Counted from the first letter of the stretch, positions 18,257-33,556 are shown. The stretch is 36,350 bases of DNA from a virus (IMGVR_UViG_3300014656_000073:1-36350); one strand, 5' to 3'. Translations and numbers: made by a program. The notes: generated by a model from the sequence alone, not told the origin.

Positions 18257-18268
18257 GGAGGTAAGGAA

Positions 18269-19207: not shown

Positions 19208-19276
19208 GCTTTCCCGATTTCCCCCCCAATATGTAATATTAAGGAAAGTTTTCCCGATATACCCATGTTATGTGTA

Positions 19277-19471
19277 TCAGAACATTCCTACCTCATGCAT
19301 CACGAAGCAGGTAAACAATGCCAGCGGAACAAATACAAAAAATGATGTTGCGGCACCGACAATCATTTGGTTTCTTTGTGTAACTATAAAATGTTCAATA
19401 AGTTCTGAGGTGTAAAAAATAGCAATTAACATCAATATACCAATTACTGCTCCATAAAAAATAGCAACCAT
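19277..19471 (-). CDS. Small 2-TM membrane protein (cassette cargo)
   Basis: Two hydrophobic segments; bounded by GTTATGTG and CACATAAC on the coding strand. Confidence 0.55.
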   Translation of the reverse strand: MVAIFYGAVIGILMLIAIFYTSELIEHFIVTQRNQMIVGAATSFFVFVPLALFTCFVMHEVGMF

Positions 19472-19482
19472 CCTAAGACCTC

Positions 19483-19568
19483 ACATAACAATTTTATGCA
19501 CTGGACAGGGTGAAGTCCGGCGCGTTTTCTGGCAGGTTTGTGGCCTGCCAGTGATAAAGGCGTTAAAC
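19483..19568 (-). mobile_element. attC-like site A (86 bp)
   Basis: Coding strand GTTTAAC..ATCACTGGCAGG...CCTG(T)CCAGTG(C)AT..GTTATGT; the TAA is the stop of 19563-20090. Confidence 0.8.
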
Positions 19569-20090
19569 CCCGCAACTAATTTCTTGCGCTGATCTGCGCG
19601 TTTTCAGTTTGTTGCACTCAAACTTCCCCGTCATCACAAATATTTCCAAACATAAACCGACCCCTTTGCATAGTTTACAACCATGTGCTAAGTAAAATTT
19701 CCGGTATGCTTTTTTACGATGTGCCTTGTTTGCATCGGATGACCAGGCGGGGGGGCCAATTCTTTTTGGTTCGTATCTCTCTCTAATTTCCGCTTTATAT
19801 AGTCTTTGGTGTTCTTTGCAGCATGTGTTTTGTGTTGATGCTGTCTTTGGTCTGGTAAACAGCTTTCCGCACGCCCTGTATTTGCAAACAACTTTTTTTG
19901 GTGGCTGTAAGGCAGCGTAGGCGTGCTTAACACACCACTTGCACATTATGTCATTGCCTGGGTCGGTTTTGGTTTTATGGAGTGGCGTTACTGCAAAAAC
20001 ACAACACCATGAAGTTTCTTTGCCGTCATCGTGCTGTTTTATTATGTGAGTTACTTTGCCCCTTGTTTCTGTTCGGTAGTATTTCGGCAT
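19563..20090 (-). CDS. Cys-rich hypothetical protein (175 aa)
   Basis: Multiple CxxC/CC clusters. Confidence 0.6.
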   Translation of the reverse strand: MPKYYRTETRGKVTHIIKQHDDGKETSWCCVFAVTPLHKTKTDPGNDIMCKWCVKHAYAALQPPKKVVCKYRACGKLFTRPKTASTQNTCCKEHQRLYKAEIRERYEPKRIGPPAWSSDANKAHRKKAYRKFYLAHGCKLCKGVGLCLEIFVMTGKFECNKLKTRRSAQEISCGV

Positions 20091-20542
20091 TACATACCTC
20101 TTTGGCTAAGTCTGGCTTTGGCATAGTCCTCTTTGGTTGGTCGTGGCATACTCTTGAAGGTTCGTGTTTCGAGTTTTCTTATAAAAGCGGTCACCATTTC
20201 TTTTGTTATTTTGTCAGGAACAGGATCAAGATTTGCATTTACCTTGTGGAGCCGGTCTGTAACTATGCCTATTTTTATTCTCCGGTTTGCATCAAGGCCA
20301 CAAATGTAATAGCCGTTGTCTCGCAGTCCTTTGTATAATTCTGCAATCCACACTCGCTGATCTTCTGATATTTTACTAACCGCCCGTTCATGCTCCTCTG
20401 TTGTGTTGCACTTCCAGATTTTTTCAATGTGCGTCTTGAGCAAGCTGGCGTAAGACCCGACAATATCTTGGGGATTTACGGTTGTTTTAACAAAAGGCGG
20501 CTCTTTTAGATCATCAACAATGTTAAAGTCTGCATCTTTCAT
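20090..20542 (-). CDS. Hypothetical protein (150 aa)
   Basis: ATG immediately after attC-like site B, whose spacer GGAGA supplies the RBS. Confidence 0.6.
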   Translation of the reverse strand: MKDADFNIVDDLKEPPFVKTTVNPQDIVGSYASLLKTHIEKIWKCNTTEEHERAVSKISEDQRVWIAELYKGLRDNGYYICGLDANRRIKIGIVTDRLHKVNANLDPVPDKITKEMVTAFIRKLETRTFKSMPRPTKEDYAKARLSQRGM

Positions 20543-20591
20543 TTTTAACTCTCCGCTGAACCAGACGTAGCTGGTTAGCTAGTTGTTATCT
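20543..20591 (-). mobile_element. attC-like site B (49 bp, copy 1)
   Basis: AGATAAC AACTA GCTAACCAG ctacgt CTGGTT(C)AGC GGAGA GTTAAAA; 46 bp identical to 23178-23223. Confidence 0.8.
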
Positions 20592-20909
20592 ACACCCATG
20601 GCACGTCGAACACTGCCTACATGCTATTTTGAATGGTATTTTGAGGGATGCAAACATAAAATTCATAGCTTTTTCTTGCTCAATAATCGGTTTTTGGTAC
20701 ACTTTTCTTTCCACTACAACTCCGGACGATAGAAAGAATCCCCCCGTTGGGCACGGTTCTTTAAATCTAAAATAGATAAGCATCTTATTCGGACCATGTC
20801 CAGTAGCGTACTCCCTATCTATTATATGCCTACCGTTTTGATGCTGCACCCCTCTACAATGTTGTTTTTTGCCATGGTCGAACCAATGAAAGCACTTTAA
20901 TATTTTCAT
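20586..20909 (-). CDS. Hypothetical protein (107 aa)
   Basis: Stop codon lies in the TAAC box of site B. Confidence 0.55.
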   Translation of the reverse strand: MKILKCFHWFDHGKKQHCRGVQHQNGRHIIDREYATGHGPNKMLIYFRFKEPCPTGGFFLSSGVVVERKVYQKPIIEQEKAMNFMFASLKIPFKIACRQCSTCHGCR

Positions 20910-21019
20910 TTTCCACTCCAGGAGCAGTTAGTACACCACGCTGCTCCAACGTCATTTATTAATAATGGGTGGCCACAAATAGGGCATTTTTCCTTTTTTA
21001 ATACTGATTCGTGTGACAT
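20906..21019 (-). CDS. Small Zn-ribbon protein (37 aa, MSHESVLKKEKCPICG...)
   Basis: CPIC...CTNC; ATG just after attC-like site N. Confidence 0.45.
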   Translation of the reverse strand: MSHESVLKKEKCPICGHPLLINDVGAAWCTNCSWSGK

Positions 21020-21022
21020 AAT

Positions 21023-21110
21023 AGATAACCAAGTTTTCAACCAGACCGCGAGAACGGTTCCGGTTTTTATAGCCGCTATGGTGGCGCGGCAGGTTAAAAC
21101 GGCGTTAGCT
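21023..21110 (-). mobile_element. attC-like site N (88 bp)
   Basis: On +: AGATAAC CAAGT TTT(C)AACC AG(A)CCGCG ... CGCGG CA GGTTAAA ACGGC GTTAGCT. Confidence 0.8.
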
Positions 21111-21111
21111 G

Positions 21112-21255
21112 TCACCAGTTCGGGCCTTTCCAGGAAGTTAAAAACCAGAAGCCGAACAGTGCGAAAAAACACAATGCGACAATGCCAAAACTCCCAAGTA
21201 TCCACAAAAGCCACTTTCCAGTGACAACAGCCCATATCGGTATCGTTATTTCCAT
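21112..21255 (-). CDS. Small membrane protein (47 aa, MEITIPIWAVV...)
   Basis: Not in the track; AGGTG RBS, one long hydrophobic helix, stops right at site N. Confidence 0.55.
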   Translation of the reverse strand: MEITIPIWAVVTGKWLLWILGSFGIVALCFFALFGFWFLTSWKGPNW

Positions 21256-21262
21256 GGTGCAC

Positions 21263-21475
21263 CTAAAAAAGTTTTTGTTGTTTGTTCGGTATAGCCAGTT
21301 TACATTTTTCGAGGATATCTATCTCTGATCTGAGATGTGCAATCATCACCAGGTTTGCTCCATTGCTCCGTTCCCTAGCAAGTTCAAGACAAGTTTGCCT
21401 GATCAAACCATCAAGGTTGTCTTCAGTCAGGATGGTGCATCCACCAGAATGGTAAAATTTATCGCCGATTCTCAT
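21263..21475 (-). CDS. Hypothetical protein (70 aa)
   Basis: Track ORF with GGGGGAAG RBS. Confidence 0.55.
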   Translation of the reverse strand: MRIGDKFYHSGGCTILTEDNLDGLIRQTCLELARERSNGANLVMIAHLRSEIDILEKCKLAIPNKQQKLF

Positions 21476-21476
21476 G

Positions 21477-21749
21477 TCACTTCCCCCTGTCGTTATGAAT
21501 TACAAGTTTCCGACCAGCAACATATTGAACAGAAGGGCAACACCAGCATGTATCAGAATCCATGTGAGCAAGTGGCGAATCACAGACATTGCAACAGACA
21601 GAATATATAGCAGTAAGAACACCTGGGCCGATGTCGTCTATTTTGTCTTTAACTCCTTCTGGCAAAACACTATCTAGCCATGACTCAAATGCCGAATATT
21701 CATCCCACGGAGAGGGATATTCTTTGTTCGTTTCAATCCAAGGTCTCAT
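21477..21749 (-). CDS. Hypothetical protein (90 aa)
   Basis: ATG just after attC-like site C. Confidence 0.55.
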   Translation of the reverse strand: MRPWIETNKEYPSPWDEYSAFESWLDSVLPEGVKDKIDDIGPGVLTAIYSVCCNVCDSPLAHMDSDTCWCCPSVQYVAGRKLVIHNDRGK

Positions 21750-21752
21750 ATC

Positions 21753-21840
21753 AGCTAACCAGTCGTTTCAGGGGAAGCCGTGATCCCCTCGGTTTTATCT
21801 GCAAAGTTCAGGGCGGCTCCCCTGAACTCAATCGTTAGCC
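21753..21840 (-). mobile_element. attC-like site C (88 bp)
   Basis: On +: AGCTAAC-5nt-GTT(T)CAGGGGA(A)GCCG ... CGGCTCCCCTGAAC-6nt-GTTAGCC, the canonical R''-L''...L'-R' spacing. Confidence 0.85.
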
Positions 21841-21841
21841 T

Positions 21842-22129
21842 TCAAGCAGGCATCTCGTTGAACGCTGAACATTCCTCATGTTCTCTTGGGTCGTATTCTT
21901 CCCAATCGCTGCACTCTTTATCTTTTGCCGGCACTCTGTTGTCGATAGGTATTGTGTGGTTTCTCCAATAAAGTTTCGGGACTGTTTTCCCTACTTTATC
22001 GGCATTCAACTCTTGCGAAGACGGGTGCATACAAGCAAGTTCTTCAATGGTGAAAATTTTGGTAGGATCTCCAGTCCTGTAAATTGCCGACCTTACATGG
22101 CATGTTCTTTTTGCTGTTTCGTAATCCAT
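21842..22129 (-). CDS. Hypothetical protein (95 aa, cassette cargo)
   Basis: GAGG RBS; bounded by GTTAGCCTT / AAGGCTAAC. Confidence 0.65.
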   Translation of the reverse strand: MDYETAKRTCHVRSAIYRTGDPTKIFTIEELACMHPSSQELNADKVGKTVPKLYWRNHTIPIDNRVPAKDKECSDWEEYDPREHEECSAFNEMPA

Positions 22130-22142
22130 AATTACCTCAAAA

Positions 22143-22231
22143 GGCTAACCAAACGCTTGAGTGGAAGCGAAGAGGTTAGCGGTTTTTTGTATTTATTTCG
22201 GTGGTGCGCTGGTCACCAACGGCCGTTAAAT
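22143..22231 (-). mobile_element. attC-like site D (89 bp, degenerate/chimeric arms)
   Basis: ATTTAAC (stop of the rep gene)...GTTAGCC; arms pair poorly; interior resembles site Q. Confidence 0.55.
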
Positions 22232-22825
22232 TTTTCCTTCTCTTTGAAGTCGCTCGTACTCTACCTGAAATGCGTCTGGCTCTTCTTGCTTGGTTTGTTC
22301 ACCACCATTTTTTCTTTCCCATGAAAGAATAGTTGCATAATGACTTTTGTATTTTTTCCCATTACTTGCTATGTAAAGTGAAAGTGCATGGATTTTATCG
22401 TCAAGCGTTGAATTAAATTGCTGTTTAAGTTTTTCATATTCTTCTAAAGATAAAAAAACATTCTGGAATTCACCGTAGGTATCTTTCTCTGCTTTTGTCT
22501 CTGCTTTTGTCTCTGCTTTTGGTGGGTCATGGTGACGCCGTGGTGGCGTCATGTTGGCGTCAAGGAAGCCTATGTCTATGAATTTATTAAGATTTGGCTT
22601 TGTTGACATGAAGCAAAGTTTCATTAAAAGGTCTGGGTCGGCAGGAATTTCACCATTTTTATCAGCAGCAAGAAGCCATAAACTTACAAGCTGGCCCCTT
22701 TCTTTATCTGACAACCCAACCCACTTGACGTTCCGCATTATGTTTCTATGTATTTTTATCCAAGGAGGCTGACCACGATCTTTTCTATATGATTGCCAAT
22801 CATCCCAGTTGTGTATCTTTAACAT
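22226..22825 (-). CDS. Phage replication initiator / replisome organizer (199 aa)
   Basis: LKIHNWDDWQSY...PPWIKIHR N-terminal domain, low-complexity repeat linker, C-terminal NVFLSLEEYEKL...KKYKSHYATILSW. Confidence 0.75.
   Translation of the reverse strand: MLKIHNWDDWQSYRKDRGQPPWIKIHRNIMRNVKWVGLSDKERGQLVSLWLLAADKNGEIPADPDLLMKLCFMSTKPNLNKFIDIGFLDANMTPPRRHHDPPKAETKAETKAEKDTYGEFQNVFLSLEEYEKLKQQFNSTLDDKIHALSLYIASNGKKYKSHYATILSWERKNGGEQTKQEEPDAFQVEYERLQREGKI
22486..22562. repeat. Iteron-like repeats inside the replication gene (putative origin)
   Basis: Three tandem TCTCTGCTTTTG (22486-22521), then GGCGTCA/TGACGCC repeats. Confidence 0.5.
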
Positions 22826-22835
22826 TTATAGCACC

Positions 22836-22920
22836 AAAAAAAATGGCTCTAAGCACTGACGACTGATAAGGAAGCTTCCAACTCCCCCGCCCCGAAAGGC
22901 ATCGCCAGTGCTTAGAGCCA
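22836..22920 (-). ncRNA. Structured leader RNA with terminator upstream of the replication gene
   Basis: 19-bp closing stem TGGCTCTAAGCACTGGCGA/TCGTCAGTGCTTAGAGCCA enclosing small hairpins, followed by T8. Confidence 0.6.
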
Positions 22921-22966
22921 CACTGTTTGATCGAACAACTTGGAAGTTTAGTTTTATCATGTAATA

Positions 22967-22995
22967 ACCATATCATTTAATCAATTTGGTGTCAA
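22967..22995 (-). promoter_or_regulatory. Sigma70-type promoter
   Basis: TTGACA-17nt-TATGGT on the minus strand, upstream of the leader RNA. Confidence 0.6.
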
Positions 22996-23158
22996 ATTTT
23001 TTCTTGTAGTTCCTGGGGTTATCAATTATTGTTTTTATTGTTTCACCAAGCAGCCTATCTGGTACAAAAATGGTTCTTTTTAAAGATCCACACCTTCCGC
23101 ACCACTCTATTTTTGTACCAGTAAGCCTTGCCCATTTATGTTTGCAGTATGTCGCCAT
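22973..23158 (-). CDS. Hypothetical protein (61 aa)
   Basis: CKH.W...WCGRCG; G-rich RBS. Confidence 0.55.
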   Translation of the reverse strand: MATYCKHKWARLTGTKIEWCGRCGSLKRTIFVPDRLLGETIKTIIDNPRNYKKKFDTKLIK

Positions 23159-23176
23159 TTCACCCCCCCCTGTTTG

Positions 23177-23225
23177 GTTTAACTCTCCGCTGAACCAGAC
23201 GTAGCTGGTTAGCTAGTTGTTATGC
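23177..23225 (-). mobile_element. attC-like site B2 (49 bp, copy 2 of B)
   Basis: Core identical to 20544-20589. Confidence 0.8.
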
Positions 23226-23480
23226 TTAAAAGCCCATAGCCCTGTCAAAATCGGCAATCGCTCCGGCAGGTGTCTCCGCAAAACCGGCAATGCCTTCTTG
23301 CAAATTTTCACCAAGCAGTACACACCATTGGTCGCCGTCTTTGTACGGCACAAGCCCGTATATAACAGCCCACATTCCCCGGCGTTTTTCAGTTGCTAGG
23401 GCTTGTTCTGCTGCATTAGTAGACATATGGGCGGCATTCCATTGTTCGTTTAATATCCCTTGTTCACTAGCATAACTCAT
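23226..23480 (-). CDS. Phage hypothetical protein (84 aa)
   Basis: KDGDQWCVLLGENLQEGIAGFAETP motif; GGGAGG RBS. Confidence 0.65.
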   Translation of the reverse strand: MSYASEQGILNEQWNAAHMSTNAAEQALATEKRRGMWAVIYGLVPYKDGDQWCVLLGENLQEGIAGFAETPAGAIADFDRAMGF

Positions 23481-23755
23481 AATGATTCCTCCCTAATAGC
23501 TTCAAAATATAGTTGAAAAAGTGCCACCATTGCCTCATCCGTAATCGCAATTTTTGTTTCTTTCACTTCACTAGCGCCGACGAGCATTTTAAATTTTATT
23601 GCCCATGTCCCGTCGTGTAGTTTTGCCAAACATACTCGTCGATTTTTAAGTTTTATCATTTTACCTGAAATAGCATAACAAGCCGCTGCACGTGGAACAC
23701 AAGGGGCGGCGGTTATTGGTCTATCCTCTGTCAGTGTTTCCGGTATTTCAATCAT
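23477..23755 (-). CDS. Hypothetical fusion protein (92 aa); first 26 aa encoded inside site E
   Basis: N-terminus identical to that of 32481-32747. Confidence 0.6.
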   Translation of the reverse strand: MIEIPETLTEDRPITAAPCVPRAAACYAISGKMIKLKNRRVCLAKLHDGTWAIKFKMLVGASEVKETKIAITDEAMVALFQLYFEAIREESL

Positions 23756-23795
23756 GGTTCAGTCTCCCTTGTGTCCAGTGAGCTAATCGTTATGC
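23673..23795 (-). mobile_element. attC-like site E (123 bp) carrying RBS, ATG and a 26-codon leader
   Basis: GCATAAC..GCTCACTGGACACAAGGG...CCCTTGTGT(T)CCA(C)GTG(C)AGC..GTTATGC; near-identical copy at 32441-32563. Confidence 0.85.
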
Positions 23796-23972
23796 GCCGC
23801 CAAACTTCAAGATCGCGACCCAAACAAGCATTGCAATACTGTGAAGCAATCCAAATGTGTCGGCACCAACTGAGTTTTTTACAACGCGTGGATGCTCACA
23901 CAAAAGGAATATCGACCTCAAGATCACACCGAGGCACCCCACCCAGAAAGAAAAAGTAATGTACGTCTCCAT
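23790..23972 (-). CDS. Small 2-TM membrane protein (60 aa, cassette cargo)
   Basis: GGAGG RBS before METYIT; stop lies in the TAAC of site E. Confidence 0.6.
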   Translation of the reverse strand: METYITFSFWVGCLGVILRSIFLLCEHPRVVKNSVGADTFGLLHSIAMLVWVAILKFGGA

Positions 23973-23987
23973 TTGCACCTCCTTACG

Positions 23988-24116
23988 GCATAACAAGGTT
24001 TTTCAAGGCCGGCTGGGTTGAAGCTCCGCTGTTCGATTCGGCTATCTCGGCTTTTCGTTTTTCAGATGTTTTCATGTCTTTTCTCCCCTTGGGTCAAGTG
24101 ACCTCAATCGTTATGA
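23988..24116 (-). mobile_element. attC-like site F (129 bp, non-matching arms) containing a 30-aa ORF at 23983-24075
   Basis: TCATAAC GATTGA GGTCACT...GGAG-ATG...CCTTGAAA AACCTT GTTATGC. Confidence 0.6.
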
Positions 24117-24120
24117 TTCT

Positions 24121-24309
24121 CTACCAATGTATATGGTCAAGGCTTCCTGTTCCCTCACTTCCTGCATTGCTTTCGTGCCTCTTCATATTTGATCTGTGGC
24201 ATCTTGGCACTCCTTTTTCAGTCCCATATTTTGTTGTTCGGCATTGCTCACAAATAAAAACAACCTTTGTCAAGTCCTCACCAGTTCTTTCTTTCCTGTT
24301 CAAGTCCAT
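24121..24309 (-). CDS. Hypothetical protein (62 aa)
   Basis: GGGAG RBS; CxxC. Confidence 0.5.
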   Translation of the reverse strand: MDLNRKERTGEDLTKVVFICEQCRTTKYGTEKGVPRCHRSNMKRHESNAGSEGTGSLDHIHW

Positions 24310-24312
24310 TTG

Positions 24313-24594
24313 CTACTCCCATTCTTGAATTTTTCCGCATTGCCAGCACATAATGTTATGGCTTATGCCACTTATTGTAAAAAGGTGGCACCCGCATTTA
24401 CATTCCCAATAAACTTCAGGCACTACCCCATATTTTAAGACACCCTTCATGGTTTTACATTCAGGGCATTCTAGTTCTTCAAAAACCTCAACCTCCGTCA
24501 CCGCCACCCACTCGTGCTTACACGCCGCACATATCGCCTGTCCGGTCAAGTGCGGGTGGTTTTTTTCGTTCTCCATTGGTATTATTGTACCCAT
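24313..24594 (-). CDS. Zn-ribbon hypothetical protein (93 aa)
   Basis: CAACKHEW...LECPEC...WECKCG...CWQCG; AAGGAG RBS. Confidence 0.65.
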   Translation of the reverse strand: MGTIIPMENEKNHPHLTGQAICAACKHEWVAVTEVEVFEELECPECKTMKGVLKYGVVPEVYWECKCGCHLFTISGISHNIMCWQCGKIQEWE

Positions 24595-24614
24595 AGCAAC
24601 TCCTTAAAAAAATA

Positions 24615-24667
24615 TCATAACAAAACATTCCAGCGGACAGCTTTGCCGCCTGAATTTAGCGTTATCT
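24615..24667 (-). mobile_element. attC-like site G (53 bp)
   Basis: On +: TCATAAC AAAAC ATT(C)CAGCGG(A)CA gctt TGCCGC-C-TGAAT TTAGC GTTATCT. Confidence 0.8.
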
Positions 24668-24889
24668 GCCATAGTAAATTAGTCTTTTAGCGTGGTGTAA
24701 AGCAAGCCTACAATGTCTTGCAACTTCTGCCCTATCTTCTCTACTAATGTCAAGGCTTCCAATAGGGTATTCAGCTCTTTTAATTTCACCCTCAAGCCAC
24801 TCTTTAAATGCCGTGGCAGATAACCCGTCAATTAAGCGGGATTCGCTAGGCAATAGTTCCGGCTCTATGTTGTGCGTTTTTTCGGTCAT
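24662..24889 (-). CDS. Hypothetical protein (75 aa) containing an internal attC half-site (about 24814-24850)
   Basis: PSESRLIDGLSA encoded by CCTAGCGAATCCCGCTTAATTGACGGGTTATCTGCCA. Confidence 0.55.
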   Translation of the reverse strand: MTEKTHNIEPELLPSESRLIDGLSATAFKEWLEGEIKRAEYPIGSLDISREDRAEVARHCRLALHHAKRLIYYGR

Positions 24890-24890
24890 T

Positions 24891-25394: not shown

Positions 25395-25395
25395 C

Positions 25396-25881
25396 TCACT
25401 CCCTCCCTAAAATGTTTTTATCTTCTGGCCTTGTAAGTGTAACCCCTGCCATTGTTGCATCTTGGTCTATCTCGGTTAGATATTCTCTCATCTGGTCAAC
25501 GTTTGCGTCTGTTATGCTCGTTAAGCGTGTTACTTCTTGTTTTAAGGCGTTGTATTCTGTTTCCATACCTTCTCTTGTCCTAACTTTCTTTATCGCGTCA
25601 CACATGGCAGCGTAGGTGGCTTTATCTCGGTAAAAAATACGGGTTAGGAATTTACCCTTATAATTTGTGTGCATGTCCTCTTTGGTTTCGCCACGGTCGT
25701 TTGCTATTTCTGTCAACCACAACCAATATAATCTCCTCTGGCGGCTTGATAGAGATTCCTTGTGAAGCTGGATTATTACCTCATGCACTTCATCGTATGG
25801 AAGATGCTGGATTATATGCAGGGCATTGTCTTTCTGCTTATCGCCAAGTATTGTTATTGTTTTTTGCATGCTTTTAAACAT
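25396..25881 (-). CDS. ninB: NinB/Orf-family recombination accessory protein (161 aa)
   Basis: S.RQRRLYWLWLTEIA...H...K..FL...SIT.......M.EYL..I...A...GV.L pattern. Confidence 0.7.
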   Translation of the reverse strand: MFKSMQKTITILGDKQKDNALHIIQHLPYDEVHEVIIQLHKESLSSRQRRLYWLWLTEIANDRGETKEDMHTNYKGKFLTRIFYRDKATYAAMCDAIKKVRTREGMETEYNALKQEVTRLTSITDANVDQMREYLTEIDQDATMAGVTLTRPEDKNILGRE

Positions 25882-25916
25882 ATCCTTTAGCCTTGCAAGG
25901 GCGGTAGATTCTTATG

Positions 25917-26219
25917 TTATGCGTAGTCGCAAAGGCGTGTCTCGCCATAGCCACCCGTGTGTAGTTCTCGGTAGTCAACATCCTTAACGAAACCTTTCGT
26001 AACAAGCCAAGGCATGTATTCTATGTTTTCGTTTTTGTAATCTCTTTCCACCACTCCGTTTTTAATGCTCCGCCCTGTCTCACTACACCAAACATTAAGC
26101 TGTTCTATTGCGTCAAAATCGTTCAGAACTTCAAACAACCCATTTACACAGTAGTCGCTATACTCACCAGTAGACACAGTAACCAATTCACCTTTTTTAA
26201 ATCCGCTTATTTCATCCAT
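25917..26219 (-). CDS. Hypothetical protein (100 aa, cassette cargo)
   Basis: AGGAG RBS; STGEYSDY motif; bounded by GTTATGCG / CGCATAAC. Confidence 0.65.
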   Translation of the reverse strand: MDEISGFKKGELVTVSTGEYSDYCVNGLFEVLNDFDAIEQLNVWCSETGRSIKNGVVERDYKNENIEYMPWLVTKGFVKDVDYRELHTGGYGETRLCDYA

Positions 26220-26245
26220 GTTAGTCTCCTCTTATATTTGTAATC

Positions 26246-26329
26246 GCATAACAAAACGCTCAACTTGACGCGAACACCTGCTATCCATCAAACAAAACCT
26301 AGGCGCGCAAGTTAGCTCCCACGTTACAC
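26246..26329 (-). mobile_element. attC-like site J (84 bp)
   Basis: On +: GCATAAC-5nt-GCT(C)AACTTG(A)CGCG ... CGCGCAAGTTAGC-6nt-GTTACAC; canonical geometry and extrahelical bases. Confidence 0.85.
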
Positions 26330-26530: not shown

Positions 26531-26556
26531 AATAAAATTTTTCTCCTTTACAGTTC

Positions 26557-26655: not shown

Positions 26656-26744
26656 GAAATCTAAAGGTATTGCTTTTGCTTATTAATTTAATAATCAGAG
26701 GGTGCCGAAATGTAACAGCCGGAGAAAGACCGGCAGAATAATTG

Positions 26745-26935: not shown

Positions 26936-26970
26936 AACATTGAATGGACAAAGAGACTAACAGGGGGGAA

Positions 26971-27171: not shown

Positions 27172-27221
27172 GGCGCAGATTTGATAAAGTTGTTTAATGA
27201 TTAATTCAGGAGATTGCGATT

Positions 27222-27542
27222 ATGGAACATAGATGCGAATATTGCCGAGGAGGAAGTGGAGGACCATGCACATGCAAGACCGCCAACCTCAGCAATTCTG
27301 CTGTAATGCCTGGTTATGTTACATACGATGTGCAAATTAAATGCCCACACTGCGACAAAGAATTACACCTAAACCAGTATCCATATAACGATGACACGAC
27401 AGATTACGGCGACACCGATGATGTTGTTGGGATGATGCTATTCGGTGGGCCGTCAGAACCAGCAAAATGGGAGAATCTTTCCGTACCTATAAAATGTTGC
27501 GGGTGTAAAAAAGTTTTTAAACTGGGTAGTTTTCAAACATAA
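27222..27542 (+). CDS. Cys-rich hypothetical protein (106 aa) with an internal attC half-site ending at 27313-27320
   Basis: AGGAG RBS; internal GTTATGTT is complementary to terminal AACATAAC. Confidence 0.6.
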   Translation: MEHRCEYCRGGSGGPCTCKTANLSNSAVMPGYVTYDVQIKCPHCDKELHLNQYPYNDDTTDYGDTDDVVGMMLFGGPSEPAKWENLSVPIKCCGCKKVFKLGSFQT

Positions 27543-27590
27543 CAACCCAGTTCAAGAGAGCAACGCTTCTCTTGCAACGAAAAGTTAAAA
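27537..27590 (+). mobile_element. attC-like site L (54 bp)
   Basis: ACATAAC-6nt-GTTCAAGAGAG caacg CT(T)CTCTTG(C)AAC-5nt-GTTAAAA. Confidence 0.85.
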
Positions 27591-27601
27591 GGAGGAACAA
27601 T

Positions 27602-27838
27602 ATGCTAGAGATTACAAGTCCAGGGTATGAAGATTTGACAGACGAAGAAAGGTCGGATGTGTCTGACAACGGTAGTGGTAAGGAATGGGCAGGGTACATA
27701 AAAGTCACTCACAATGGAAAAACGATCCTTCTTGAATCTGACGCAATGGAGCCAGAAGATGCTTCTTTCGGGCGTGATCTAGGGTGGGTCTACGATATAA
27801 TAATGAGGGCCTACGAATTAGGTAAGAAGGATGCATAA
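27602..27838 (+). CDS. Hypothetical protein (78 aa, cassette cargo)
   Basis: AAGGAGG RBS; SDAMEPEDASFGRDL motif. Confidence 0.65.
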   Translation: MLEITSPGYEDLTDEERSDVSDNGSGKEWAGYIKVTHNGKTILLESDAMEPEDASFGRDLGWVYDIIMRAYELGKKDA

Positions 27839-27872
27839 CGCTTCTCTTGCAACGAAAAGTTAAAAGGAGGAA
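27833..27872 (+). repeat. Truncated copy of site L (site M); 36-bp direct repeat 27562-27597 = 27837-27872
   Basis: AACGCTTCTCTTGCAACGAAAAGTTAAAAGGAGGAA occurs twice. Confidence 0.85.
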
Positions 27873-27874
27873 AC

Positions 27875-28159
27875 ATGATGTTAGCAAAAGAACCTGTCTG
27901 GATAGCTGAATGTGGCAAGTGTTTTGATGTTCTTGAAATACCTCTAGTGAAAAAAGAAGATGGCCTCTGGTATGATGGAGAAGTTGACACCTTCCTTGAA
28001 GAAGAGGGTTGGAAATTCACAGATTATGAGCGTGGGGTGGTTGTTTGTGGTGGTTGCCACGAAGCAAGGCGGCAAGAGATTGAAACTGAGGACATTATCA
28101 GGGAAAACAGGGTAGAAATGCCAAGGGGTTATTCTTTTGGACAAGTTGGTTTTTATTAA
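27875..28159 (+). CDS. Hypothetical protein (94 aa)
   Basis: AAGGAGG RBS; CxxC...GW...CxxC. Confidence 0.65.
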   Translation: MMLAKEPVWIAECGKCFDVLEIPLVKKEDGLWYDGEVDTFLEEEGWKFTDYERGVVVCGGCHEARRQEIETEDIIRENRVEMPRGYSFGQVGFY

Positions 28160-28285
28160 CCTAAAACTAAGGGGTGAGCGATTATGAGTGACGCATATTG
28201 CCCAAGATGTAAGGGTAGAGATGATGATTGTTGGATGTGTAATAAGCCCGAGCCTAGCGAATCCAACTTGAGTGCTGCGTTATGC
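28154..28285 (+). mobile_element. attC-like site O (132 bp; loop carries the start and N-terminus of 28184-28426)
   Basis: TATTAAC..ACTAAG...CTT(G)AGT-5nt-GTTATGC; inner stem imperfect. Confidence 0.6.
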
Positions 28286-28426
28286 TGTAAAGACGATGCT
28301 CAATGCAAAGACTGTGAACATGCTTGGCACAATTTAGGGATTGCCTCATTAAGCGAAAATACTTGGTGCTATATGTATCTAAAGAAAATGACGTGTTGTA
28401 AAAAACATAAAAGAAAAACAGCATAA
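28184..28426 (+). CDS. Cys-rich hypothetical fusion protein (80 aa)
   Basis: Reads through the right arm of site O (PSESNLSAALC). Confidence 0.6.
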   Translation: MSDAYCPRCKGRDDDCWMCNKPEPSESNLSAALCCKDDAQCKDCEHAWHNLGIASLSENTWCYMYLKKMTCCKKHKRKTA

Positions 28427-28581
28427 CGACCAAGCTCAAGGGCAAAAGCCCAACGGGAGAAACTAGATGCCTGAATATCTGTGTGTAGAGATATGTCTAA
28501 AGGAGAAGATATGAAAACAATAGAAGAAATAGTACAAGCACACCAGCAGCGTAGCTGTCTGAGTGCAGCGCTTGGTTAGCG
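28421..28581 (+). mobile_element. attC-like site P (161 bp, partly mismatched arms; 22-aa ORF 28511-28579 in loop)
   Basis: GCATAAC GACCAA GCTCA...GTG(C)AGC GCTTG GTTAGCG; TAACGACCAAGCTCA shared with site T. Confidence 0.65.
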
Positions 28582-28609
28582 GATTTAATTAAATTAAGGA
28601 GGTTATGGT

Positions 28610-28813
28610 ATGTCTGAAATATTGCTTACACTATGTTCATTAACAATGGCACTGAGTGTATATTTTCTATTTACGGTAGTTCGATCACTCCAAGAAACAT
28701 GGATAAGGATGGAGACCTTGGTTGAAACGTATTTAGATTTTTTTATGAAAAACTTTAATTCAGAATCTGTCTCCGGTGGTATTGTAAATGATGGTTCTAA
28801 AACCCTTGAATAA
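28610..28813 (+). CDS. Single-TM membrane protein (67 aa)
   Basis: AAGGAGG upstream; N-terminal hydrophobic helix. Confidence 0.55.
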   Translation: MSEILLTLCSLTMALSVYFLFTVVRSLQETWIRMETLVETYLDFFMKNFNSESVSGGIVNDGSKTLE

Positions 28814-28943
28814 TGAGACGATGGGATTTCTACGCCAACATTTATTCTTGGATAGAACCAATAGAATTAATCTTAGAACATCTAAACCTAGAGCTTAATT
28901 ATGAACCAGCACGTGAGCCAGAAACAACCCTGAAGGAGAACAA

Positions 28944-29195
28944 ATGATTACATACAAATCATGTACAAAACCAGCATCAAGCAGAGAGGATATAATTTTC
29001 AACGGCAAGAAAATCGGTGATATGGATATTATCGATGGCAAATACCGAGCGCACATCTGGTTTGACGATGTAACAACCGACTGTTTCGGGTATGGAATTC
29101 ATAAAGAGGGGGCCATTGAAAATGCTATTCTAAAAGGTACATCAGACGCAATTACATTAATAGCAAACCTTGACGCACTTGTGGGGGAATTATGA
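28944..29195 (+). CDS. Hypothetical protein (83 aa)
   Basis: AAGGAG RBS. Confidence 0.6.
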   Translation: MITYKSCTKPASSREDIIFNGKKIGDMDIIDGKYRAHIWFDDVTTDCFGYGIHKEGAIENAILKGTSDAITLIANLDALVGEL

Positions 29196-29380
29196 GCATG
29201 TACGTTAAGCGAGGAGGAGAGGGGCACATTGACTCTGACTTTGTAGAAGTATGGGAAGTGCCAGACGGCTCTGCAATCGACCAGGAGGATGACAAGGGGC
29301 TGCTTGAGGCTTACGAAAATGGCGAGATATGCAGAGAGGATATGATTAACGAACTTGGATTCAAGGAGGAGGATTTATAG
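29192..29380 (+). CDS. Acidic hypothetical protein (62 aa)
   Basis: ATGA-coupled; Asp/Glu-rich. Confidence 0.55.
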   Translation: MSMYVKRGGEGHIDSDFVEVWEVPDGSAIDQEDDKGLLEAYENGEICREDMINELGFKEEDL

Positions 29381-30037
29381 ATGAGTGAAGCAAAAGATGA
29401 TATGGTTGATGTGCCAGCCGTGACCCTCAACATATACCAACGGATAAACGAAGTAAGAAAGAAAATATCTTATCTTAAAAAAGATGCAACGGTCACGGGG
29501 TATAAGGCGGTAACTCACGACCACGTTACGGCATCAATCCGTGACCACCTTGTTACGTTTGGAATAGTTATTGTCCCAAGGCAAACATCTTGGGAAACAG
29601 CCGACACAGGCAAAGCAACAAGCAAGGGGACACCATATACTCGATTTGAGGGAGATTATGAGTTTGATGTGGTAAATGTGGATGACCCCAAAGATATGTT
29701 TACAGGTAAAGTCCATGCCCACGCAGAAGATCAGGGTGATAAGGGGCCAGGGAAAGCAATTAGCTATGCGCTCAAGGCTTTTGAATTAAAGTTGTTCAAT
29801 ATTGAGTCCGGAGAAGATGATGAGGAACGACCAGAACAGGAGCTTGTAAAGCTAAGTGACGAGCAGATTATTACACTTCGGGAAATGTGCGAAGGATATG
29901 ATTGGCCCGTTGACGAAACACTCGAAAGGCTTGCAAAAACATACGGGCTAACAAAAATAGTTGACCTGCCAGAAACTCACTTTAAAAACTGTATTGCTAG
30001 AATGGAAGCACAATATGCTAAACAAGCAGAGAAGTAA
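29381..30037 (+). CDS. erf: ERF-family single-strand annealing protein (218 aa)
   Basis: NIYQRINEVRK...LKKD...DQGDKGPGKAISYALK..ELKLFNI (ERF signature). Confidence 0.85.
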   Translation: MSEAKDDMVDVPAVTLNIYQRINEVRKKISYLKKDATVTGYKAVTHDHVTASIRDHLVTFGIVIVPRQTSWETADTGKATSKGTPYTRFEGDYEFDVVNVDDPKDMFTGKVHAHAEDQGDKGPGKAISYALKAFELKLFNIESGEDDEERPEQELVKLSDEQIITLREMCEGYDWPVDETLERLAKTYGLTKIVDLPETHFKNCIARMEAQYAKQAEK

Positions 30038-30617
30038 TGGGTGGCACGAACAACGAAAAGCCAGAATAACAGCTAGTCGTCTTGGTGACGTTCTTGCAGG
30101 TATAAAAACAAAACGATTTAATGGATATATTCAAGATATTGTTTTGTCAATGCTCGGTGCCCCAACATTCCAAGATGATAAGCCGTGGTTTCAACATGGT
30201 GTTGATTGGGAACCAGAAGCAATAGCCCTATATGAATGGGAAACAGGAAACACTGTTGCTGAATCTGGGTTTATTGTGCATCCAGATTATGATTTTATAG
30301 GTTGCTCTCCAGACGGCATAATAACTGGCGGTGGTGTAGAGGCAAAAAGCAGGAAGTCCCTCACCGGCCACCTGAAAAGCGAAAAGGCAGGAATAGATAC
30401 AGTATACATGCCACAGGTTCAAGGGTCAATGTGGATAACGGGCTCATTGTTTTGGGACTTTATCTCATACTATAAAAACAACAACGGTAAAACGCTGTTA
30501 CACATACACAGAGTTAACCGTGATGATAAATATATTAAAAACCTTGAGGAACGATGTCTAATGTTTTGGGCTATGGTTCAAAACGAACTAAAACAAAGGA
30601 GAAGAAATGATAAATAA
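30015..30617 (+). CDS. YqaJ/lambda-exonuclease family nuclease (200 aa)
   Basis: QRS..W...R...ITAS, G...EPEA, GCSPDG, EAK and Y.PQVQG.MWITG motifs; likely ATG start at 30015. Confidence 0.9.
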   Translation: MLNKQRSNGWHEQRKARITASRLGDVLAGIKTKRFNGYIQDIVLSMLGAPTFQDDKPWFQHGVDWEPEAIALYEWETGNTVAESGFIVHPDYDFIGCSPDGIITGGGVEAKSRKSLTGHLKSEKAGIDTVYMPQVQGSMWITGSLFWDFISYYKNNNGKTLLHIHRVNRDDKYIKNLEERCLMFWAMVQNELKQRRRNDK

Positions 30618-31014
30618 AGCAATCATCATAGGCAATCTTGGCAAAGACCCTGAAGTACGTTACTCACAGACAGGTGGGGCAATAGCCTCTTTCTCTATTG
30701 CAACCACCGAAACTTGGAAGAAGCAGGATGGCACCAAAGAAGAAAAAACAGAATGGCACAAGATAGTTGCTTTCGGTAGGCTTGCAGAAATCTGCGGAGA
30801 ATATCTTTCCAAAGGAAGCAAGGTTTATCTTGAAGGCAAGATTCAAACAAGAAAGTGGGAGAATAAAGACGGTGTAACACAATACACCACAGAGATTGTG
30901 GCGCGAGAGATGAAGATGCTTACCCAAAGAAACGGAGAGGCAGGAAGCAGCGACAGGGCAAACCAAAACGAGGAGCCACCGTTCCCTGAAATGGACGATT
31001 CGGTTCCATTTTAA
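30607..31014 (+). CDS. ssb: Single-stranded DNA-binding protein (135 aa)
   Basis: NKAIIIGNLGKDPEVRY...TEWH...KGSKVYLEG; acidic tail DDSVPF. Confidence 0.97.
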   Translation: MINKAIIIGNLGKDPEVRYSQTGGAIASFSIATTETWKKQDGTKEEKTEWHKIVAFGRLAEICGEYLSKGSKVYLEGKIQTRKWENKDGVTQYTTEIVAREMKMLTQRNGEAGSSDRANQNEEPPFPEMDDSVPF

Positions 31015-31018
31015 TACC

Positions 31019-31112
31019 TTATAACGCACATAATCACCAGCGGCACCACCGAAGAAATACACGGATAGTGCCGCCACCGTTCGCTCCGTCTGCGTGAATT
31101 TAATTGTTAAGT
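31019..31112 (+). mobile_element. attC-like site Q (94 bp)
   Basis: TTATAAC-6nt-AATCACCAGCGG...CCG(T)CTG(C)GTG(A)ATT-5nt-GTTAAGT. Confidence 0.8.
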
Positions 31113-31127
31113 TTCTGGAGGTGGGTA

Positions 31128-31340
31128 ATGGCTGACATAATAGAATTTGATGATCTTGGAAACTACCGAGGGTGTTTACAAATAACTAAAGGTGATGGGA
31201 AGTTTTTTGCCCGTGTTGACTGCGACCTTAATTATGGAACGGATCATGAAACGGATTGGGAAGATATACCACAATACCTGTTTGATGCTTTGACCAAATA
31301 TGCCAATGGCGTAGATACTACTAAAATATCTGAAACTTAA
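31128..31340 (+). CDS. Hypothetical protein (70 aa, cassette cargo)
   Basis: GGAGG RBS; bounded by GTTAAGTTTC / GAAACTTAAC. Confidence 0.65.
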   Translation: MADIIEFDDLGNYRGCLQITKGDGKFFARVDCDLNYGTDHETDWEDIPQYLFDALTKYANGVDTTKISET

Positions 31341-31394
31341 CGCCAGAACTCAGCCCGCAGGCGTTAGCCTGTCGGCTGTAGTGATTTGTTAAAC
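31335..31394 (+). mobile_element. attC-like site R (60 bp)
   Basis: ACTTAAC GCCAGA ACTCAGC CCGCAGGC gtta GCCTGTCG GCTG(T)AGT GATTT GTTAAAC; same layout as the bottom strand of short aadA-type attC sites. Confidence 0.9.
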
Positions 31395-31417
31395 GAAATT
31401 GCACGAAAGGAGATAAA

Positions 31418-31741
31418 ATGCACTGGATATATGCGCACTTGATCGGAGACTATTTAATCCAAAATGACTGGATGGCGAAAGGGAAGAAAACATCCTCTTT
31501 TATTTGCTTTGTCCACACCGTGACCTACTTGTTTCCATTCCTCTTTTGCAGCCTTGAGTGGTGGCAGATTATGGCCATCGGGGCGCAACACTTCGCACAA
31601 GATAGAACTGGAGTAATTGTGTGGATGCTTAATGCAACCGGCAAAGGTGGCTTTGCAAAACCACCAATGGCCCCTTGGAGCATTATAGTAACTGACAACG
31701 TAATCCATATTTTATTTATGGCTTGGATCGTGTCCGTTTAA
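31418..31741 (+). CDS. DUF3307-family membrane protein (107 aa, cassette cargo)
   Basis: AHLIGDYLIQNDWMA..K...H...Y...HF.QDR...DNVIH. Confidence 0.75.
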   Translation: MHWIYAHLIGDYLIQNDWMAKGKKTSSFICFVHTVTYLFPFLFCSLEWWQIMAIGAQHFAQDRTGVIVWMLNATGKGGFAKPPMAPWSIIVTDNVIHILFMAWIVSV

Positions 31742-31924
31742 CGCAAAGCTAACCAGACCAATGGGAAAAGGAGAAAATTAATGGCTACTTTATGCAGAGA
31801 TTGCGCCGACACAACATGCCCACATTTTGACAGTGTGCATTTGGGCGGATTAAAATGTTTTAAAAAGAAAACAGACACCACCGAACTGCGCCACATTGGG
31901 TCTGAGTTGAGCGAATTGTTAGAA
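31736..31924 (+). mobile_element. attC-like site S (189 bp; loop carries RBS and N-terminus of 31781-32089)
   Basis: GTTTAAC..GCTAACCAGACCAATG...CATTG(G)GTCTG(A)GTT(G)AGC GAATT GTTAGAA. Confidence 0.8.
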
Positions 31925-32089
31925 CGATCTAGGTCACTACTTTCCTGGATAAATGAAAAGGCAACAAAGGCCGATAGCCTGTCAAAAAGCGTGGCCATAA
32001 GCGAGAAAGACAGATTATTCAACTTAGGTCGTGCTGTTGCCTTTGCCGAAGATTACACGCAACTTAAAGAAATTATTGATACGTTCTAA
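31781..32089 (+). CDS. Hypothetical fusion protein (102 aa): Cys-rich leader from site S plus helical cargo
   Basis: AAGGAG RBS inside site S; reads through its right arm (HIGSELSELL). Confidence 0.6.
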   Translation: MATLCRDCADTTCPHFDSVHLGGLKCFKKKTDTTELRHIGSELSELLERSRSLLSWINEKATKADSLSKSVAISEKDRLFNLGRAVAFAEDYTQLKEIIDTF

Positions 32090-32266
32090 CGACCAAGCTC
32101 ACCGGCTGGCGTAAAGGAGGAACTAAATGGCAAAAATACATAAACTTCCAGAGAAAGAAAAAATTAAGCACACCAAAGAATCACGAGCGTGGGAAAAAAT
32201 AGAAAAAAACATTGATGCCCAACAACCCAGCGAGGACGCCAGTCCGAGTGAAGCGAATTGTTCGGT
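32084..32266 (+). mobile_element. attC-like site T (183 bp; loop carries RBS and ORF start)
   Basis: TTCTAAC GACCAA GCTCACCGGCTGGCGT...ACGCCAG(T)CCG(A)GTG(A)AGC GAATT GTTCGGT. Confidence 0.8.
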
Positions 32267-32297
32267 TACAAAAGAGGATGTTGCCCTTGGGAGATAA
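32127..32297 (+). CDS. Small ORF starting inside site T (56 aa, MAKIHKLPEK...)
   Basis: Not in the track; AAGGAGG RBS; stops shortly after the GTT box. Confidence 0.5.
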   Translation: MAKIHKLPEKEKIKHTKESRAWEKIEKNIDAQQPSEDASPSEANCSVTKEDVALGR

Positions 32298-32446
32298 AAA
32301 AATACTTGTGCGTGGTTTGCGGGGAACTACACGAAGAAACTGAGCAATGCGCTAAGTGCGGTGAACGTTACTGCTCTGACTGGTGCGGTGGATGGGAAGA
32401 CCAAGAGCATACTTGCAAAAATTGTAGCAAGGTTGATGGAATCTAA
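32258..32446 (+). CDS. Cys-rich (Zn-finger-like) ORF, start uncertain
   Basis: Four CxxC-type pairs; stop lies in the TAAC of site E2; only a TTG start inside site T. Confidence 0.4.
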   Translation: MFGYKRGCCPWEIKKYLCVVCGELHEETEQCAKCGERYCSDWCGGWEDQEHTCKNCSKVDGI

Positions 32447-32563
32447 CGATTAGCTCACTGGACACAAGGGAGACGAAACTATGATTGAAATACCGGAAAC
32501 ACTGACAGAGGATAGACCAATAACCGCCGCCCCTTGTGTTCCACGTGCAGCGGCTTGTTGTGT
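32441..32563 (+). mobile_element. attC-like site E2 (123 bp, copy of E)
   Basis: 113/116 nt identical to the reverse complement of E between TAAC and GTT. Confidence 0.85.
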
Positions 32564-32747
32564 GATTGTTGAGGGGAAGTTTTATTCCGGCGGGTATACC
32601 ATCTGCGTTTGCAAAACAAAGAAAATTGCTGTGAAGAAGTGTCGGGATGATGGCTTTTCATATTGTCGTAAGGATGATTTGTGGAATGGAGAGCATCACG
32701 GGGACTCTTATTATCGCAGAATTGAGAGAGAAGATTTTTACACATAA
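32481..32747 (+). CDS. Hypothetical fusion protein (88 aa); first 26 aa encoded inside site E2
   Basis: Same leader as 23477-23755 but an unrelated C-terminal part. Confidence 0.6.
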   Translation: MIEIPETLTEDRPITAAPCVPRAAACCVIVEGKFYSGGYTICVCKTKKIAVKKCRDDGFSYCRKDDLWNGEHHGDSYYRRIEREDFYT

Positions 32748-32828
32748 CGATTTTTAATAAGTGGTGCGCCCGTGAATAACCAGCATGAGCGCAGAGGTGT
32801 TCGCATCCACTTAATTTACTGGTTATGC
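32742..32828 (+). mobile_element. attC-like site U (87 bp)
   Basis: ACATAAC..AATAAGTGGTGCG...CGCA(T)CCACTTA(A)TT TACTG GTTATGC. Confidence 0.8.
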
Positions 32829-32839
32829 GAGGATTTAAA

Positions 32840-33100
32840 ATGGAAAACGGAAATTTTGGACAAGCACTGGAAGAGATGAAATCCGGACGTAAATGCTGGC
32901 GTAAAGGGTGGAATGGTAAGGGGATTACAATTGAGCTGCAAAACCCTGACGAAAATAGCAAGATGACAAGCCCCTACATTTTTATTGATACCACCGGACT
33001 GCAAACCGACAACGATGCTGCGCCAAAAAGCTGTGTGCCTTGGCTGGCCTCCCAGACTGATATGCTTGCCGAAGATTGGTACTCTGACAGAGTATATTAA
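32840..33100 (+). CDS. DUF2829 protein (Tad2-like anti-defence nucleotide sponge family, 86 aa)
   Basis: NFGQALEEMKSG.K..RKGWNGKG...PYIFI...VPWLASQTDMLAEDW; ATG at 32840 after GAGGA. Confidence 0.85.
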   Translation: MENGNFGQALEEMKSGRKCWRKGWNGKGITIELQNPDENSKMTSPYIFIDTTGLQTDNDAAPKSCVPWLASQTDMLAEDWYSDRVY

Positions 33101-33129
33101 CTGCCTAAAATGCGCCGCCTACATGGGGC

Positions 33130-33319
33130 GCATAACGCCAGAATTGAGGAGCCTTGGGCTTAAAGGAGAAAGTAGATGAGAACATGTAGGGGGTGTGTGA
33201 ATATACCGAACTTTTGCATTGGCGAGAAAGATGGTGGAGCCGAGAAGGATTGTTATGTGGGACTTACCGAAGCCACCGCACAACCAAGCCCAAGGTCTGT
33301 CTCAGATGCTTTGATATGT
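33130..33319 (+). mobile_element. attC-like site V (190 bp; GTT box reads GAT; loop carries RBS and N-terminus of 33176-33478)
   Basis: GCATAAC GCCAGA ATTGAG..GCCTTGGGCTT...AAGCCCAAGG(T)C..CTCA(G)AT GCTTT GATATGT. Confidence 0.7.
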
Positions 33320-33478
33320 GATGTGGAGGTGGGAAGCGAGGAAACACTTTCGGGATGGAAGCAACCTTATGTTTCCTTGAGAATTGGCAACTTTGAGTTT
33401 AAGAGACTTTACCAGACTAAAAACGGTGCTGAGAGATGTGTGGCTAAAGTTAAAGAGCTTTTAACTGCCAGCACATAA
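33176..33478 (+). CDS. Hypothetical fusion protein (100 aa)
   Basis: AAGGAG RBS in site V; ends in CACATAAC. Confidence 0.6.
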   Translation: MRTCRGCVNIPNFCIGEKDGGAEKDCYVGLTEATAQPSPRSVSDALICDVEVGSEETLSGWKQPYVSLRIGNFEFKRLYQTKNGAERCVAKVKELLTAST

Positions 33479-33556
33479 CACCGAGCTAACCTGCCTATTT
33501 GTCGTGCACTTTTCTGGTAATTTGATAGACAAAGATACTTAGCGTGAAGCTGTTAC

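Follow-up and report, generated by a model that had tools for sequence, protein, structure and literature searches.

The early region of a groundwater phage contig carries about 22 attC-type sites, distributed over two divergent gene arms and standing among core genes, and these sites are reversed relative to their genes, the opposite of the arrangement in bacterial integrons. We consider it probable that they delimit inverted, hairpin-first cassettes, moved at TAA|C by an integron integrase (IntI) acting from outside the DNA analyzed. That DNA, hereafter the window, is the 36,350-nt stretch IMGVR_UViG_3300014656_000073:1-36350, a partial tailed-phage contig rated 50% complete, and the runs that hold it carry the label groundwater metagenome. 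Its late genes, including terminase, portal and capsid, lie on the minus strand from ~17000 down to 1, and its early genes form two arms that point away from each other from ~26500-27000. On the minus-strand (left) arm are an HNH gene, NinB and the replication initiator, on the plus-strand (right) arm Erf, an exonuclease and SSB, and further minus-strand genes occupy 33557-36350.

A reading made earlier from the bare sequence (the sequence-only reading) had listed 21 attC-like sites in the early region, with complete sites of 49-190 nt and none in the late module. We found attC boxes as described at all 21 coordinates, and the complete sites indeed span 49-190 nt. The AAC/GTT cores (R' RYYYAAC on the bottom strand, R'' GTTRRRY) are present in 20 of the 21, the exception being 33130, which has GAT. 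The L boxes pair at 6 or 7 of 7 positions in 17 of the 21 sites, following spacers of 5-6 nt, the L'' arm carrying the extra base; pairing is poor in 22143, 23988 and 28421, L' has been lost in 27833, and 32742 has a spacer of 7 nt. A grammar scan in which spacers of 5 or 6 nt were allowed, replacing an earlier scanner whose fixed 5/6 spacers were too strict, returned 13 sites with a score of at least 11 in the early region, compared with a mean of 1.2 (maximum 3) in 20 shuffles, and one site in the other 22 kb of the window. The alignment of 22 sites was too gapped for a covariance model, and the model (R1) was instead built from 12 short attC sites outside the window, taken from bacterial IntI loci, the Shewanella phage M16-3 and TJE1. 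In this check, which had been proposed with the sequence-only reading, R1 scored 12 of the 21 sites at 20 bits or more (range 23.8-40.3 bits; Table 1), and its best score outside the early region was 10.8 bits, in line with a late module devoid of sites. Sites 31736 and 32084 have no R1 hit, probably because they are too long, and were recovered by the grammar scan. By one method or the other 14 of the 21 sites are strong, and the remaining seven (31019, 22143, 23988, 27833, 28154, 28421 and 33130) are weak or damaged, being hybrid, truncated or known by L pairing only; the halves of 23988 look derived from two different sites. The folding check gave a mixed result: 8 of the 16 sites folded have a z score of -2 or lower, but the full hairpin is the best fold in only 6. 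Beyond the original list we located a further site at 27192-27319 and half-sites at 19267, ~24820, 25916 and 33473.

These findings together establish the hairpin sites of the early region as attC-type. There is hardly any likelihood that they are terminators, repetitive extragenic palindrome-like repeats or chance structures, as their location at gene junctions and the several sites folding no better than shuffles might suggest, given the fixed spacers, the one-sided extra base, a uniform polarity, the 13 sites found where 1.2 are expected, and open reading frames (ORFs) running through eight of them; scans of the window with Rfam and ARAGORN gave no matches. By definition, the array is a large cluster of attC sites lacking an integron integrase (CALIN) on an incomplete contig, and it is not built of classical cassettes.

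We investigated the orientation of the sites. In integrons the AAC of R' is cut on the bottom strand, which is marked by the extra bases near L'', as set out in passages of Nivina 2016 (PMC5027507). The bottom strand of the phage sites is the minus strand in the left arm and the plus strand in the right arm, in each arm the coding strand; all sites are inverted with respect to their genes, a feature that the sequence-only reading overlooked. For the left-arm sites the plus-strand TAAC that it listed is in fact R'', and the stop codon sits at the opposite end. Its statement that the TAA of TAAC is usually the upstream stop holds only when the coding strand is read, on which, in 15 of the 21 sites, the TAA coincides exactly with the stop codon that ends an ORF of at least 60 aa. 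The classical cassette, in which a top-strand gene precedes the attC belonging to it, was found in none of the eight intervals between adjacent scanner sites in the window, seven of which are inverted and one unclear. L pairing favors the coding strand as bottom strand in 20 of 20 sites with correct ends, three of them only marginally, and R1 and the scanner chose the same strand at nearly all sites that both found. The controls M16-3 and TJE1 gave seven and two standard intervals, respectively, and 55 bacterial IntI loci gave 24 standard, 2 inverted and 3 unclear (25 of the original 80, from Bacteroidota at 31-37% identity, were omitted). Viral loci from an attC motif search (38 loci) gave 34 inverted, 5 standard and 4 unclear, 17 viral IntI loci gave 14, 1 and 3, and 19 viral SSB loci gave 7 inverted; these counts include near-duplicate loci, and L170 and L177, which are the window's own DNA, were dropped from a set of nine loci.

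The reversed layout places the hairpin before the gene. All eight listed sites longer than 120 nt have an ATG in their loop behind a purine-rich stretch resembling a ribosome-binding site (RBS), a feature of none of the 13 shorter sites; in two of the eight the loop ORF is only 22 and 30 aa long. The cassette predicted from this organization consists of a hairpin and then a gene, cut at TAA|C.

We compared the R' boxes with breakpoints in related DNA. X2, a set of contigs from another groundwater sample with 52% of words shared with the window, has 11 joints within 19100-33700. An end lies within 5 nt of an R' TAA in 6 of the 11 joints (9 of the 22 ends), these zones making up 1.9% of the region, a uniform null that overstates the enrichment because R' boxes are gene ends, where phage mosaics break anyway. 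One joint replaces exactly the unit 27197-27537, beginning at the unlisted site 27192-27319. Two joints, 19271/31739 with 4 shared letters and 19273/31921, suggest that the bare box 19267 has taken up an additional cassette whose leader is of the 31736 type. R' boxes also delimit, among the pieces and ends listed, the piece 31020-31743 and the loose end 32087, and the ends 31921 and 33311 fall at R''. The cassette shuffling put forward by the sequence-only reading is supported only as to breakpoints at TAA|C, and X1, the run matching the window best, has no joints. X1 may be the source sample and does not provide independent support, and X3 (share 0.08) and X4 (0.00) yielded short pieces only and were not used. 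Close whole-genome relatives were not found: a capsid query returned 0 loci, an Erf query returned one locus without sites, and GenBank phages gave a single one-gene match, likewise without a site.

R'' forms a second breakpoint. Near-identity within the pairs 23673/32441 and 20543/23177 spans R' to R'', and the flanking sequences are unrelated. We aligned 11 copies of the 23673 leader family, comprising 23673, 32441 and nine sites in other phage contigs, all of them in contigs with phage-type genes; the alignment extends from R' to R'', and likeness stops at both cores (covariation was judged by eye only). Leaders of this family precede at least six unrelated gene bodies, methylases included. 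The 27537/27833 pair shares 36 nt extending through the RBS, and in PH101 (L184:1920-3988) the identity of two sites continues to the ATG of the genes that follow, which are different; these pairs fit short-homology recombination instead. Such shared stretches ending in loops or at the RBS, to which an X2 end at 20565 can be added, are what would be expected if the sites were genuine attC sites that are now passengers, old arrivals kept as translation leaders and moved at short homology by the phage Erf and exonuclease. The phage encodes Erf, exonuclease, SSB and NinB, a third of its sites are damaged, and 23988 is a hybrid. We nevertheless consider the passenger explanation unlikely: only 4 letters are common to the two sides of joint 19271/31739, 14 unlike sites have retained both L-box pairing and the extra base although translation alone would not need them, and relatives with the same site family have an intact IntI.

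The window has no match to PF00589 and no IntI remnant, confirming that it contains no tyrosine recombinase. Among 34 related viral records, 9 have a tyrosine recombinase, and 5 of the 34 were tested with TIGR02249; two of these exceed the IntI cut-off, and one more approaches it. In one phage, L059, a leader of the 23673/32441 family is present at ~75% identity alongside an IntI of 321 aa (407.5 bits with TIGR02249, cut-off 265) with an IntI-type insertion. Its locus (L059:5648-8865) contains four inverted cassettes, a terminal TAAC and then intI, which overlaps the terminase start; two of the cassettes are DNA methylases that start in the attC loop. In L059, intI has the orientation known from classical integrons, directed away from the top strand, and only the cassette genes are reversed. 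Comparison of eight pairs of IntI phages showed, in four, arrays that differ and homology that returns at the terminal TAAC in front of intI, as expected of attI. The sequence-only reading had seen no attI, but the bare R' box at 19267, at the array end and with an extra cassette implied in X2, is a candidate attI-like end, bearing little likeness to other phage attI ends. Phages with arrays that are complete or have end repeats (G003, G010 and G024; end repeats or 100% complete) also show no PF00589 match, and since complete or circular array phages without a recombinase exist, an outside enzyme is the simplest reading. IntI is found in 61 of 151 sampled Desulfobacterota genomes; the best SSBs there, in the one phylum searched, are 59-70% like the phage SSB, and the host may be a member of this phylum. 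An IntI acting from outside the window is thus the best candidate enzyme, as suggested by the L059 IntI with its shared leader family, by the other IntI phages and by the frequency of IntI in Desulfobacterota.

Two other sources of recombination were considered. It is improbable that the uncaptured part of the genome contains an intI of the phage's own: the 50% completeness and the related records passing or approaching the IntI cut-off leave room for it, but late genes on the minus strand are found at both contig ends, which makes tail genes the probable content of the gap, both array ends are visible, the slot of intI in L059 is taken by the HNH gene here, and complete array-bearing phages without a recombinase exist. 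More improbable still is that another enzyme, such as a short Xer-like recombinase, acts on the sites; some tyrosine recombinase does occur in 9 of the 34 related records, but the enzyme encoded next to sites of this family matches TIGR02249 and contains the IntI-type insertion, and the sites match a model whose training set was attC linked to IntI.

Phage IntI sequences do not form one group. In the IntI tree, 10 viral rows and one row from a metagenome-assembled genome form a branch with support of 100/99, L075 stands apart, and L071 and L072 are long branches; a single origin of phage IntI is not supported, the 14 viral rows among 64 needing 5 changes, at least 2. One phage IntI clade (L078, L086, L088, L089, L076 and L077) lies behind a common attI-like end, and among near-identical phages the arrays differ wholly. 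In L180:4680-10101 (Virus Rctr41k), an IntI-like gene annotated xerD is followed by at least five attC sites of ~130 nt.

Several observations weigh against inverted cassettes moved by an outside IntI. Neither recombination nor circles nor excision was observed, and recombination is inferred. A third of the listed sites (7 of 21) are damaged or weak, folding supports half or fewer of the 16 sites folded, and R1 was trained on 12 sites selected by our own scanner; the strands assigned by scanner and R1 conflict in L180 and at one site of L106. In X2, 5 of the 11 joints lie away from R' boxes, among them 25125/25392, a plain gene swap at ordinary gene ends; two joints describe a single insertion, the support for one is 24 letters long, and X2 may blend several phages; the lack of joints in X1 has to be read knowing that contigs drop rare forms. 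The host was guessed from a single gene, searched in one phylum. A search of host chromosomes did not recover the leader family (one 34-nt match in 401 genomes, none in 5 chosen genomes), and the window's cassette genes have no relatives in the bacterial integron loci fetched. Half of the genome may also be missing from the contig.

We envisage that an IntI from the host or from a co-infecting phage would add, remove and swap units at TAA|C, directly behind the previous stop codon. The bottom, coding strand would fold when single-stranded during infection or replication, and IntI would exchange it at AA|C. Early promoters would read through the arrays, each cassette bringing its own RBS in or just behind the hairpin, so that a cassette promoter (Pc) would not be needed. 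Since the cut follows the stop codon, the upstream gene would be spared, and cassettes could therefore collect at secondary TAAC sites behind core genes, which would explain the interleaving. The sequence-only reading had noted cassettes interleaved with core replication genes; that arrangement is confirmed, but the core genes themselves (rep, NinB, Erf, exonuclease and SSB) are unlikely to be cassettes, the sites having more likely landed behind their stops. A rarer second exchange, at R'' G|TT on the top strand or by Erf-type short homology, would join a leader to a new gene body and may create new cassettes; exchanges at R'' or in loops would yield leader-gene fusions, hybrids and stumps. 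A wider proposal, for which we would put the chances at slightly below even, is a mirror-image phage integron: in it, IntI of host or phage origin would move cassettes with a leading hairpin within a common pool, attC would also serve as a portable translation start, new cassettes would be born by leader joining at R'' G|TT, and counter-defence genes, Tad2 and DNA methylases among them, would spread between unrelated phages.

We compared the window to systems for which attC arrays have been described. The sequence-only reading knew of no description of this architecture, but phage attC clusters without an integrase had already been published: the portion of Qi 2023 (PMC9892861) covered here reports 17 phage CALIN clusters in 10,705 phage genomes, among them TJE1, PH101, P12002L and MW202573, and five of six tested sites from phage CALINs without intI were recombined by IntI1. 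The clusters with counts stated in that portion have 2-4 sites, compared with ~22 in two arms here. According to our own scan, PH101 and MW202573 (L182:2069-3738) have the inverted layout of the window, and the two PH101 sites recombined by IntI1 have the coding strand as bottom strand, whereas the layout of TJE1 is standard. The same portion of Qi 2023 (PMC9892861) calls PH101 typical and mentions neither the inversion of genes relative to attC nor loop start codons, although its Figure 2 may display the inversion without comment. Classical integrons, as described in passages of PMC5027507 and PMC4889954, share the R'-L'-loop-L''-R'' order, the extra base near L'' and the crossover in the R' AAC on the bottom strand; the window differs in having its genes on the bottom strand, the stop in R', the hairpin before the gene and no intI, and in seeming not to need a Pc. 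Top-strand insertion as presented in part of Nivina 2016 (PMC5027507) flips gene and site together and does not yield this layout. Among the IntI phages, L059/L075, L078, L086 and L088 resemble the window in their inverted cassettes and loop start codons, and L059 in its leader family, but they keep intI behind a terminal attI, in the same direction as the cassette genes. Chromosomal integrons of Desulfobacterota (e.g. L124) have attC sites of ~125 nt, with a similar stem by eye, but standard polarity and no BLAST-level match to the phage leader. In the full-text literature searched, with subscription papers and preprint supplements outside its coverage, an inverted phage layout or loop start codons are not described. 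Relative to the published phage CALINs, the apparent novelty is the inverted layout, for which we found no paper; that it recombines is our inference.

The small genes of phage early regions form mosaics that are usually ascribed to sloppy recombination and selection. If the sites work, part of this mosaicism would be site-specific and would use the enzyme of bacterial cassette arrays. The reversed layout would suit a phage, as a cut behind the stop codon leaves the preceding gene intact and the hairpin supplies a start signal. A cassette transferred between phage and bacterial arrays would end up pointed away from the promoter, and this may keep the two pools apart. The mechanism of cassette making is termed unknown in a passage of Cury 2016 (PMC4889954), and one hairpin family fused at R'' to unrelated bodies offers a concrete junction bearing on that question.

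Table 1. Sites and selected genes of the early region. For the sites, the strand given is the bottom strand, which is the coding strand; bits refer to R1, L to paired L-box positions and scan to the grammar scan.
Feature	Position	Strand	Evidence and remarks
Terminal R' box without hairpin; candidate attI-like left-array end, then HNH and packaging genes	19267..19273	-	
attC, 86 nt	19483..19568	-	36.8 bits; L 7/7
attC, 49 nt, 46 nt identical to 23177	20543..20591	-	23.8 bits
attC, 88 nt	21023..21110	-	30.5 bits
attC, 88 nt	21753..21840	-	40.3 bits; fold z -3.4
Degenerate attC; TAA is the replication gene stop	22143..22231	-	14.6 bits, poor L pairing; X2 breakpoint 22224
Replication initiator-like gene (core)	22226..22825	-	phrog_13246, E 1e-12
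attC, 49 nt	23177..23225	-	27.3 bits
attC, 123 nt, RBS and ATG in loop; leader family as 32441	23673..23795	-	29 bits
Hybrid attC, halves not pairing; 30-aa loop ORF	23988..24116	-	10.5 bits; L 3/7
attC, 53 nt	24615..24667	-	33.8 bits
L''-R'' half-site within gene 24662-24889	24813..24851	-	sequence; 78% like 28154 distal arm; no model score
NinB/Orf recombination mediator (core)	25396..25881	-	phrog_72
R' box alone, contains stop of gene 25917-26219	25916..25922	-	
attC, 84 nt, first of left arm	26246..26329	-	40.1 bits
Unlisted attC, R' = TAAT, loop ATG	27192..27319	+	18.7 bits, E 0.04; X2 joint starts at TAA 27197
attC, 54 nt	27537..27590	+	28.6 bits; X2 joint end at 27537
Truncated copy of 27537, 33 nt, L' lost at internal AAC	27833..27865	+	9.6 bits
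attC-like, 132 nt, loop ATG	28154..28285	+	L 6/7, extra base G
attC-like, 161 nt, 22-aa loop ORF	28421..28581	+	L 5/7
Erf annealing protein, exonuclease, SSB; core recombination block flanked by two sites	29381..31014	+	PHROGs 155, 149, 44
attC, 94 nt, weak	31019..31112	+	17.4 bits; X2 piece begins 31020
attC, 60 nt; its gene 31418-31741 is DUF3307	31335..31394	+	39.9 bits
attC, 189 nt, loop RBS and ATG	31736..31924	+	scan 14.9; X2 ends 31739, 31743, 31921
attC, 183 nt, loop RBS and ATG	32084..32266	+	scan 12.4; X2 loose end 32087
attC, 123 nt, loop ATG; 97% identity to 23673 across 119 nt	32441..32563	+	24 bits
attC, 87 nt, 7-nt spacer	32742..32828	+	32.7 bits
Cassette gene, Tad2-like (Thoeris anti-defence) domain, at site 32742	32840..33100	+	PF11195, E 2e-21, 76.6 bits, cut-off 25
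attC-like, 190 nt, R'' = GAT, 12-bp stem, loop ATG	33130..33319	+	X2 piece begins 33311
R'-L' half-site, right-array end meeting convergent late genes	33473..33492	+	

Pfam names 2 of the 30 early proteins scanned, one DUF3307 and one Tad2-like. Tad2 is a sponge for immune signals, and the cargo could serve host takeover and counter-defence, as suggested by the Tad2-like match only. The stop codon of the Tad2-like gene lies within a TAAC, 30 nt before site 33130.

Other features of the window were noted. A promoter scan, confined to the divergence region 26300-27300, gave 4 promoter-like hits where 2.2 were expected. Between the early arms, the plus strand at 26745-26934 could encode a tRNA-like RNA with a 7-bp acceptor stem, a D arm and a T arm, and with ~140 nt of extra stems between the D and T arms; it folds at -66.8 kcal/mol (z -2.0), ARAGORN gave no match to it, and Rfam picked up the T arm only, at 8 bits. 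Directly upstream of the replication gene there is a 28-nt inverted repeat (22835-22929), and short direct repeats occur within that gene near 22480-22520; together they possibly represent an origin. A 585-aa gene at 33557-35314 (minus strand), for which PHROG and NCBIfam gave no matches, has a likely signal peptide and a repetitive, beta-helix-like sequence. Finally, three small genes with strong RBSs lie between the HNH and packaging genes at 17954-18811 on the plus strand, opposite to their neighbors and without attC sites, and two stretches there are replaced in X2.

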